Both the position numbers and the translations under genes were made by a program. Under the pieces are notes generated by a model, which ran no database searches, was not told the origin of the DNA, and was given only the letters and a program-made list of their open reading frames with translations. From Candidatus Tenderia sp. (lineage in GTDB: Bacteria; Pseudomonadota; Gammaproteobacteria; Tenderiales; Tenderiaceae), in the NCBI GenBank assembly GCA_031416075.1, contig JANOSY010000088.1:9504-73503 (forward strand): DNA of 64,000 nt, given 5' to 3'. Below are positions 30,445-44,799 of this stretch, one piece after another. Numbering within the stretch: position 1 is the first letter of the stretch; every line of letters begins with the position of its first letter.

Positions 30445-31009
30445 CGTCTCATCCCGCAGTTAAAAGAGCGAAATTATACGTCGCCAATGCCCTTTTGGTA
30501 AAGAGTGGGGCCCTGACCTTCGTGCCTACCCATGTTTACCCCCTAAAAAGCCACTCAGTCACCACTACCGCAAGAACAAATAGTCACATTGTGACAATTT
30601 TTGGCGCTCGCAATAAAAATACAACTGGTTGATTTTATTTATTTTTATAAAACAGTGGCAGCTATCTCAAAAAAACAAAACAAATGTGACACTTCATGAC
30701 ACCTTTGTGGCTCTTTTCAACATCAAACACCTTTAATTCACTGAAGATCAATCAGTTATCTAACGCATTAACATTAAAAAAAATTAATAATCTTATCCCG
30801 CCTCAAAGCAAAGCTGCAGCCGATACAAAAAACCGTCCTATCTCATTGATTTTATATTTATTTACAACAAAAACCACAAAATGGCTCATATATTGCTTTA
30901 TATAGATTGAGTAAAAACAGTCGGAACAGCACCCATGTCATCCCCAGCAGTAGAACGCCAGAAACAGATATCCATGACACAGGAAAAACAACCTCAAGGA
31001 GCACTACAC

Positions 31010-31492
31010 ATGAAGATAGGCAATCTCATCACCCTACTACTGCTGGCACTGTCAGGCATCGGAGCAGCATTGGCCGACGGCGGCATTGAACTCACCATGG
31101 TCGCTCAGGAGCAGATCATCAGCCAGGATGCCAATGGCAAACAGGTAATCACCCTAACCAACCCCGCCTCTGTTGTGCCCGGCGACACCATTGTCTACAC
31201 CACCCACTACCGCAACAAGGGCAAAGTAATTGCGGAAAACGTGGTGATCACCAATCCCATCCCCAGCGACACCGCCTATATCACCCACAGCGCTTCCCAG
31301 GCAAATGCCAGCGTCAGTTACTCCGTGGATGGTGGCAAGCAGTTTGATACTCCGGCCAACCTGACCATCACCGGCAGCGACGGCAAACCACGCCCCGCCA
31401 CCGCCAATGACTACAGCCATATTCGCTGGACCCTGAAAAGCATCGCGCCCGACGCCAGTGGCAGTGTCAATTTTCACGCCCTGGTGCGCTAA
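31010..31492 (+). CDS. Small secreted DUF11-type (conserved repeat domain) protein
   Basis: AAGGAG lies 7 nt before the ATG at 31010. Signal peptide MKIGNLITLLLLALSGIGAALA. The DUF11-like core is VVPGDTIVYTTHYRNKGKVIAENVVITNPIP. The ORF track starts 25 codons earlier, at 30935. Confidence 0.75.
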   Translation: MKIGNLITLLLLALSGIGAALADGGIELTMVAQEQIISQDANGKQVITLTNPASVVPGDTIVYTTHYRNKGKVIAENVVITNPIPSDTAYITHSASQANASVSYSVDGGKQFDTPANLTITGSDGKPRPATANDYSHIRWTLKSIAPDASGSVNFHALVR

Positions 31493-44711: not shown

Positions 44712-44799
44712 CCCAGATGTACATTGGGGTGGTGTCCTGAAACCGAGGCACCGCCCATGGTATGCTCTCTTCCCTTGCAACAACCCTGACCCTCTCACC

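Follow-up and report, generated by a model that had tools for sequence, protein, structure and literature searches.

The 64,000-nucleotide stretch of DNA analysed here (the window) carries an interval of 14,355 bp (30445-44799) between the divergently transcribed core genes guaB and xseA. The interval is occupied by an AT-rich leader and a cassette of four plus-strand genes, termed g1 to g4, that encode two small and two giant proteins. An earlier sequence-only reading had described a separation of about 14.3 kb, a leader of roughly 560 bp followed by four plus-strand genes, and an E. coli arrangement in which guaB and xseA are divergent neighbours. Measurement bears out each of these statements: the leader is 565 bp long with 38.4% GC, all four genes lie on the plus strand, and in E. 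coli MG1655 guaB (minus strand) and xseA (plus strand) are 161 bp apart. The features of the locus are as follows.

27333-28904, minus strand: guaA (Pfam match)
28984-30444, minus strand: guaB, IMP dehydrogenase, the left conserved flank (Pfam IMPDH at 2.7e-165, two CBS domains)
30445-31009, no strand: AT-rich divergent leader of 565 bp between guaB and g1 (GC 0.384)
31010-31492, plus strand: g1, a secreted single-domain CLIPPER (DUF11) protein of 160 amino acids (aa) (Pfam, TIGR01451)
31710-32771, plus strand: g2, a secreted 353-aa protein with two beta-sandwich domains
32777-39073, plus strand: g3, a giant envelope protein of 2,098 aa, the core of the cassette
32777-35473, plus strand: N-terminal region of g3 (aa 1-899), with signal peptide, immunoglobulin-like (Ig-like)/prealbumin-like domains and a CLIPPER domain at aa 510-603
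35474-35788, plus strand: OmpA-like peptidoglycan-binding domain of g3 (aa 900-1004; Pfam OmpA)
35981-36586, plus strand: pair of Ig-like domains before the barrel of g3 (aa ~1069-1270; AlphaFold model)
36716-39022, plus strand: predicted C-terminal giant beta-barrel of g3 (aa ~1314-2082), followed by a 16-aa tail
39093-44711, plus strand: g4, a variable giant secreted protein of 1,872 aa (Pfam fn3, Pur_ac_phosph_N)
44310-44708, plus strand: C-terminal CLIPPER-like domain of g4 (aa ~1740-1872), common to g2
44712-44799, no strand: spacer of 88 bp between g4 and xseA, xseA promoter-proximal sequence, ~40 nt of it alignable by eye with the relative L092
44800-46161, plus strand: xseA, exonuclease VII large subunit, the right conserved flank (Pfam Exonuc_VII_L at 2.7e-120)

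A probably old insertion

Among 80 loci with xseA homologues, more than 20 gammaproteobacterial ones from several families place guaA-guaB divergently and immediately upstream of xseA, usually across a gap of ~80-700 bp (the carriers include Thiohalomonadaceae, Halieaceae, Thalassotalea and Legionellales-type metagenome-assembled genomes, MAGs), and none of them has g1-g4 at this position. The guaB-xseA adjacency is ancestral and the cassette interrupts it, so the interval counts as an insertion.

Presence and absence within the clade were followed in five genomes. In L092 (guaB 94%, xseA 79% and M23 peptidase 74% identical to the window) the site is empty: guaB and xseA are 200 bp apart, and the guaB-proximal and xseA-proximal promoter segments match, by eye, both ends of the window interval. 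The cassette is dispensable, because this site is empty. The site is occupied in L091 (xseA 90%, M23 82%), where g3 and g4 lie directly upstream of xseA, in L087, where the cassette adjoins a guaB 88% identical to that of the window, and in Candidatus Tenderia electrophaga (L083/L093; guaB 88%, guaA 84%, xseA 65%), where the order is guaA-guaB, g1, g2, g3, g4, a TPR/GDSL gene and xseA-M23. At these occupied sites g3 is 46-75% identical to that of the window, and for its barrel region the identity is 75% with L091 and 52% with Ca. Tenderia electrophaga. Occupation of the same site down to 65% xseA identity, with g3 at 46-52%, argues that the insertion took place before these lineages separated. 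Divergence of the cassette proteins roughly tracks that of the host genes, which fits long residence. The gap also accommodates other cargo, namely a dCache-PAS-GGDEF-EAL protein in L006 (7160-9940) and the TPR/GDSL-lipase gene between g4 and xseA in Ca. Tenderia electrophaga (L083 20598-22433; L093 8046-9794).

Intergenic gaps within the cassette are 217 nt (g1-g2), 5 nt (g2-g3) and 19 nt (g3-g4). The starts of g1 and g2 at 31010 and 31710 were preferred over longer open reading frames (ORFs) from 30935 and 31563 on the basis of gene calls on the identical metagenomic contig L082 and alignments of homologues. The first ~100 bp of the leader are guaB promoter-proximal sequence conserved with L092, and the remainder lies upstream of the cassette; closer cassette relatives are also AT-rich over the 400 bp preceding g1. 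The sole 10/12 sigma-70-like match in the leader is on the minus strand (30502-30473) and points to guaB. No known RNA, riboswitches included, was recognised in the leader, where no Rfam family matched at E≤1, and an attenuator in the 217-nt spacer between g1 and g2 was rejected on a folding z-score of -0.84, which is not significant. Conserved motifs were sought by alignment with the leaders of the related cassettes L096 and L094, which shows no conservation at the DNA level.

The borders carry no sign of a mobile element, as had been noted from the sequence. Pfam, NCBIfam and segment profile searches found no integrase or transposase domain in the four proteins, there is no tRNA near the borders (the nearest are at 15-16 kb and 61.5 kb), and no direct or inverted repeats beyond chance-level 15-27-mers flank the interval. 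The missing scars are attributed here to age and native composition and not, as the sequence-only reading had allowed, to the decay of an island.

The four genes had been taken to be more GC-rich than core genes such as lon. They are so in comparison with lon (0.57-0.59 against 0.483), but not with the adjacent core genes guaA, guaB, xseA, tadA and ald (0.56-0.60). The lon gene (8928-11375) is 20 kb distant from the cassette and is a misleading comparator, because it belongs to an atypical housekeeping block with low GC at third codon positions (GC3): tig, clpP, clpX, lon, ppiD, pnp, infB and nusA have a GC3 of 0.45-0.57 (6236-14972 and 52716-60764). Genes of this block (tig, clpP, clpX, lon, pnp, infB and nusA) are typically highly expressed. 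GC3 is 0.70-0.74 in the cassette and 0.63-0.69 in the adjacent core genes listed above. GC skew is negative throughout the window, and all plus-strand genes (among the core ones fabI, xseA and the gene for the M23 peptidase) are rich in C at third positions while all minus-strand genes are rich in G. Karlin's B between the cassette and the same-strand core genes fabI, xseA and M23 is 0.36-0.38, against 0.38-0.69 to minus-strand genes, and is no larger than between core genes on opposite strands. Codon usage of the cassette is therefore nearest to that of same-strand core genes, in agreement with the replication-strand skew of the window. The deviating base composition or codon usage expected of a genomic island was not found by GC or Karlin's B, with GC3 higher by 0.05-0.10.

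Accordingly, the description of the interval as an accessory insertion stands in that it interrupts an ancestral adjacency and is absent from L092, but the insertion is neither compositionally foreign nor recent. The sequence-only reading would have been abandoned had the four genes been present in all relatives with a core-like composition; the composition does match, and of the relatives L091, Ca. Tenderia electrophaga and L087 carry the cassette at this site but L092 does not.

Predicted products of the cassette

The g3 protein has 291 scored homologues, mostly of ~1,900-2,100 aa. Its N-terminal domains match Pfam CarboxypepD_reg at 37 bits and SdrD_B below its cut-off, and its CLIPPER domain is recognised both by DUF11 (26.9-38.9 bits, cut-off 24.6) and by TIGR01451 (44.6 bits, cut-off 24). 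The OmpA-like domain matches PF00691 at 40.3 bits (cut-off 27.2), and a profile search of the PDB retrieved the C-terminal domains of Omp38, OprF, TssL and MotB at 1e-16 to 1e-18. This domain is missing from P0018-P0024 and L094, and the N-terminal region of ~880 aa is kept in homologues with and without it. The Ig-like pair appears in the AlphaFold model as short-strand beta-sandwiches (model residues 60-260) with a predicted local distance difference test score (pLDDT) of 80-92.

The C-terminal ~770 aa of g3 were modelled from an alignment of 47 sequences (pLDDT 78, predicted template modelling score 0.70) as ~35 long antiparallel strands, a count taken from DSSP and not from coordinates. 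This region probably forms a very large outer-membrane barrel. In Foldseek searches the top fold matches are outer-membrane barrels, headed by the largest known ones, SlpA, LptD and SprA, with template modelling (TM) scores of only ~0.2. A conserved G.F..FR.KF motif, resembling a beta-signal, is found near the end of the barrel family, with the 16-aa tail behind it. No Pfam or NCBIfam model matched the barrel. Its family comprises at least 1,247 representative clusters at 50% identity (E≤1e-30), and in nearly all of them the barrel is located at the C-terminus of proteins of 1,000-3,000 aa.

The small protein g1 matches PF01345 (34.6 bits, cut-off 24.6) and TIGR01451 (44.5 bits, cut-off 24) and has, by eye, a Sec-type signal peptide (MKIGNLITLLLLALSGIGAALA|DGG). 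A signal peptide is likewise present in g2, which is modelled with a pLDDT of 90 as two beta-sandwich domains; the N-terminal one matched no Pfam or NCBIfam model, and the C-terminal one is CLIPPER-like (TIGR01451, 26.8 bits, cut-off 24) and homologous to the C-terminus of g4. Both g1 and g2 are modelled as complete CLIPPER-type sandwiches, not as strand-deficient pilins. A phmmer search of their CLIPPER domains against PDB sequences did not retrieve 9IFR, a solved CLIPPER structure.

The second giant protein, g4, has a signal peptide visible by eye and matches Pfam fn3 (51.6 bits; domains at aa 756-838 and 1048-1145) and Pur_ac_phosph_N (45.8 bits). Homology between g3 and g4 was ruled out (BLASTP E>2). 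Counterparts of g4 elsewhere are of 1,486, 1,644, 2,215 or >5,772 aa, or are replaced by two smaller genes, and their domain content varies; some homologous genes, for example that of L084, carry CLIPPER/DUF7933 arrays. Against L091, aa 747-1872 of g4 are 93% identical and aa 1-250 are 53% identical, and the stretch between them is unalignable.

Distribution, descent and surroundings

The conservation of the cassette as a unit was assessed on 80 metagenome loci retrieved with a g2 profile, with counts limited to loci with sufficient flank. The g1 gene is immediately upstream of g2 in all 59 loci, the N-terminal region of g3 immediately downstream of g2 in 44 of 45, and the barrel follows in 30 of 30. 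A further gene with the C-terminal domain of the g2/g4 type is present in 15 of 35 loci; most of the others end too early for a giant g4. None of the 27 metagenome loci with at least 4 kb upstream has guaBA beside the cassette, and the four-gene layout was also found in six other genomic contexts. In none of the contexts examined is there a conserved co-occurring secretion component (type I, type II, TpsB, usher or Por).

Among these contexts, the L094 cassette lies among toxin-antitoxin genes in a MAG labelled Deltaproteobacteria. In two NCBI MAGs (L089/L090, 8340-21001) the cassette is inside a flagellar cluster, between fliC-flaG-fliD-fliS-fliT and PilZ/fleQ, and has two smaller genes in place of g4, both with a C-terminal domain of the g2 type. 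In L096 a gene for a multihaem cytochrome c (1-2082, minus strand; >690 aa, with CxxCH motifs) is divergent from the cassette upstream of g1, a neighbour of possible interest given the electroautotrophic relatives.

A tree of the C-terminal 1,000 aa of g3, read together with g2 identities, separates two clades. Clade A holds the window, L091, L094 and the contig of P0002, and clade B consists of two guaB-site cassettes, those of Ca. Tenderia electrophaga and L087, and of that in L086, located elsewhere. L096 is outside the tree and was grouped with clade A by its g2 identity of 82%; close cassette relatives in other contexts have g2 identities of 76-82%. Two readings fit this pattern, one old insertion with later relocations or transfers, or exchange of alleles through conserved flanks.

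DNA identity between the window and L091 is itself mosaic. It is 77% over 35942-39076 (g3) and 72% over 39256-39841 (part of the g4 N-terminal region), is not alignable over 39842-41336 (g4), rises to 88% over 41337-47441 (the C-terminal part of g4, xseA, M23 and a Dabb gene) and is 79.5% over 48336-55364 (downstream core genes). This suggests either that a recombination tract extends over the border of the cassette or that g3 and distal g4 are under diversifying selection.

The locus as a whole has a GC content of 57-60%. The guaB side carries tig-clpP-clpX-lon-ppiD, aroC, hemN, the alanine dehydrogenase gene, an HD-GYP response regulator gene and tadA, and the xseA side carries the M23 peptidase gene, an asnB-like/ABC pair, pnp, infB and nusA. 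The best identity of xseA in a species-representative genome collection is at most 62%, a larger protein collection contains metagenomic relatives at 96-79%, and among named organisms Ca. Tenderia electrophaga (Gammaproteobacteria, Tenderiales) comes closest, at 65%. An enterobacterial origin is ruled out by GC content, gene context and the xseA and guaB identities, which place the window with Tenderiales-like Gammaproteobacteria.

Two other features of the neighbourhood were recorded. An ORF of 812 aa (24825-27263, minus strand) between tadA and guaA matches nothing in Pfam or NCBIfam, nor by tblastn in any of the fetched relatives, tadA directly adjoins guaA in L003, L011 and L016, and the ORF looks like a second lineage-specific gene of the same neighbourhood. 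Downstream of an operon for an asnB-like amidotransferase and ABC exporter (48801-52594, minus strand) is an AT-rich stretch of 1.35 kb (47446-48800, GC ~0.39) with tracts of (GGC/GGT)n (48011-48121 and 48573-48601) and small ORFs of low complexity (Gly/Met-rich, Ala/Thr/His-rich and poly-Pro), which could be a small-peptide locus or mere simple repeats.

Candidate roles and significance

The cassette is widespread, self-contained and placed in the divergent guaB-xseA promoter region, where it is now resident, natively composed and dispensable. It is judged probable that a module for a surface fibre or adhesin, anchored in the outer membrane, was inserted here long ago in a lineage-specific event. 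All four products appear, by eye, to bear Sec-type signal peptides. The C-terminal ~770 aa of g3 are predicted to insert in the outer membrane as a very large beta-barrel, and the OmpA-like domain, where present, may bind peptidoglycan, as its domain match suggests. As CLIPPER-type beta-sandwich proteins, g1, g2 and g4 would be displayed on, or exported through, g3, with the C-terminal domain common to g2 and g4 as a putative docking or sorting module and the long, fast-evolving N-terminal part of g4 as a candidate exposed fibre or adhesive end. The net role may then be that of a surface fibre or adhesin, anchored in the outer membrane, for attachment to solids or cells.

CLIPPER domains are known to build stalks that resist stress in fibrillar adhesins, among them one from a Gram-negative bacterium that carries an OmpA-like anchor (PMC12617251). 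B9T28_05395 of Acinetobacter silvestris (PDB 9IFR; PMC12617251), a Gram-negative adhesin of this type, is like g3 giant (~2,100 aa) and secreted, and combines CLIPPER/CnaA-like and other Ig-like domains with an OmpA-like anchor; the role proposed is that of an adhesin stalk able to withstand stress. In g3, however, the OmpA-like domain is internal and is followed by ~1,090 aa that include the giant predicted barrel, the CLIPPER domains that can be detected number just one or two, nothing like the CshA adhesive head was found, and the protein is always accompanied by the small CLIPPER proteins g1 and g2, here together with a second giant protein. A tandem CLIPPER/CLIPPER_2 stalk array was not found either: g3 has a single match that exceeds the cut-off, and Pfam gives none for g4. 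The CLIPPER/OmpA-type fibrillar adhesin is nonetheless the nearest described kind; new here are the internal OmpA-like domain, the giant barrel behind it and the obligatory g1 and g2.

Several observations weigh against a surface fibre or adhesin of ancient insertion. No characterised homologue of the cassette was found, and a segment search of aa 1-700 of g4 matched no family, so that an adhesive tip domain is not recognised there. Only 10 of 30 complete metagenomic homologues of g3 have a detectable OmpA-like domain, and peptidoglycan anchoring is therefore not essential to the family. The barrel itself is a prediction of moderate confidence (pLDDT 78). In known outer-membrane proteins both termini of the barrel are periplasmic. 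If this holds for g3, both its OmpA-like domain and its N-terminal Ig-like region of 880 aa begin on the periplasmic side, and surface exposure of g3 itself is then not evident. Finally, the guaB site harbours cassettes of two clades, both of which are also represented at other sites, and this stops short of proving a single ancient insertion.

This last point bears on whether the guaB-xseA gap is instead a permissive hot-spot, in which different cassette lineages were inserted, or exchanged through the conserved flanks by homologous recombination in the way seen at surface-antigen loci. Such a history is considered unlikely, although it would account for the presence at one site of clades A (window, L091) and B (Ca. 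Tenderia electrophaga, L087), both with members away from guaB, for the other genes held by the gap (GGDEF-EAL in L006, TPR/GDSL in Tenderia), and for the mosaic identity to L091 (88% against 72-77% and 79.5%), which suggests recombination tracts spanning the cassette border. On the other side, the barrel of g3 evolves faster than xseA (75% where xseA is 90%), and the 52% identity between clades A and B is about what this clock predicts at 65% xseA, so that vertical descent suffices. Moreover, the hosts of L094, L096 and L086 may merely be relatives with rearranged genomes.

A different role for the same genes would make g1-g2-g3 an undescribed, widespread and self-contained pathway of outer-membrane export and assembly, with the g3 barrel as both translocon and anchor for Sec-exported CLIPPER-domain proteins; this is given a minor chance. 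Cargo would be recognised through the C-terminal domain of g2 and g4, and the pathway, amounting to a new secretion or surface-fibre system of Pseudomonadota and 'delta-proteobacterial' lineages, would work in the manner of type IX secretion (T9SS) or of ushers while being unrelated to them, a proposal of equally small probability. The parallel lies in the type IX translocon SprA (PDB 6H3I, 8GL6), also a giant barrel, with 36 strands against ~35 predicted in g3, and in partner proteins (g2 and g4 here, the C-terminal-domain cargo in T9SS) with a common, conserved beta-sandwich domain at the C-terminus. There is no sequence relationship, however, with no T9SS family (SprA barrel, C-terminal sorting domain, PorU/PorV) matched in Pfam or NCBIfam; the hosts are Pseudomonadota and Desulfobacterota-type MAGs, not Bacteroidota; PorU, PorV, PorK-N and motor genes are not linked to the cassette; and the role of g3 as translocon is purely inferred. 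Searches for two-partner secretion, autotransporter or inverse autotransporter components likewise found neither TpsB with POTRA, nor a TPS domain, nor an autotransporter or inverse autotransporter beta-domain.

It is quite unlikely that the cassette is a structural envelope module rather than an adhesin, with g3 as a SlpA-like tether between outer membrane and peptidoglycan, or a large pore, and g1, g2 and g4 as a periplasmic or surface layer. SlpA of Deinococcus radiodurans (PDB 7ZGX, 8AE1, 8AGD) uses an SLH domain and a coiled coil where g3 has OmpA-like and Ig-like domains, is not part of any cassette of the g1/g2/g4 type, and matches g3 with a TM-score of only ~0.2 and 9% sequence identity; the resemblance of g3 to SlpA and SprA is architectural only and not homology. 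Nor is a tether easily reconciled with an OmpA-like domain detectable in a third of homologues, or a structural layer with a cassette that L092 can dispense with and a g4 hypervariable in length and domains, as is typical of exposed adhesins.

A recent, horizontally acquired island whose mobility genes and attachment scars have decayed is very unlikely. The interrupted adjacency, the absence from the fairly close relative L092, the GC3 of 0.70-0.74 against 0.63-0.69 in neighbours and the close cassette relatives elsewhere (beside toxin-antitoxin genes in L094 and the multihaem cytochrome gene in L096, with g2 at 76-82%) all speak for it. Set against these, total GC is the same as in the flanks and codon usage is nearest to same-strand core genes, the borders lack integrase, transposase, tRNA and direct repeat alike, and the site is shared by relatives down to 65% xseA with g3 at 46-52%. 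Least probable of all is a chaperone-usher-like pilus pathway (g1 as major subunit, g2 as two-domain chaperone or tip, g3 as usher), since no Pfam usher, PapD-type chaperone or fimbrial-subunit family (PF00577, PF00345 and fimbrial subunits) matched g1-g4 at E≤0.001, or at E≤1 on segments, usher folds match g3 no better than TonB-dependent receptors or porins do, g1 and g2 are modelled as complete sandwiches, and the barrel is far larger than in FimD/PapC operons (~35 predicted strands against 24).

Full-text literature searches returned no description of the cassette, the CLIPPER domain paper alone being relevant, and a comparative-genomics preprint on the Tenderiales names other surface proteins but not this cluster. 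The insertion by itself is ordinary, and the content of the cassette is the more valuable part. The CS54 island of Salmonella (shdA, ratAB, sinHI) also places lineage-restricted giant surface-adhesin genes beside xseA without obvious mobility genes; it occupies the other side of xseA (xseA-yfgK), and its autotransporter and intimin-like adhesins are unrelated to g1-g4.

The data indicate that a conserved divergent promoter gap such as that between guaB and xseA can stably host a 14-kb surface-protein operon over long evolutionary time. The C-terminus of g3 is among the largest predicted outer-membrane barrels, and the order of the g1-g2-g3 triad is strictly conserved; if g3 were indeed a translocon, it would open another, new way through the outer membrane. 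Among the carriers are uncultivated electroautotrophs of the Tenderiales, whose attachment to solid electron donors is central to them. Geomobilimonas luticola JCM 17780 is a cultivable carrier, and Desulfuromonas sp. TF has a g2 homologue. As the carriers thus extend to cultivable Geobacterales, the proposed surface fibre or adhesin is open to testing.

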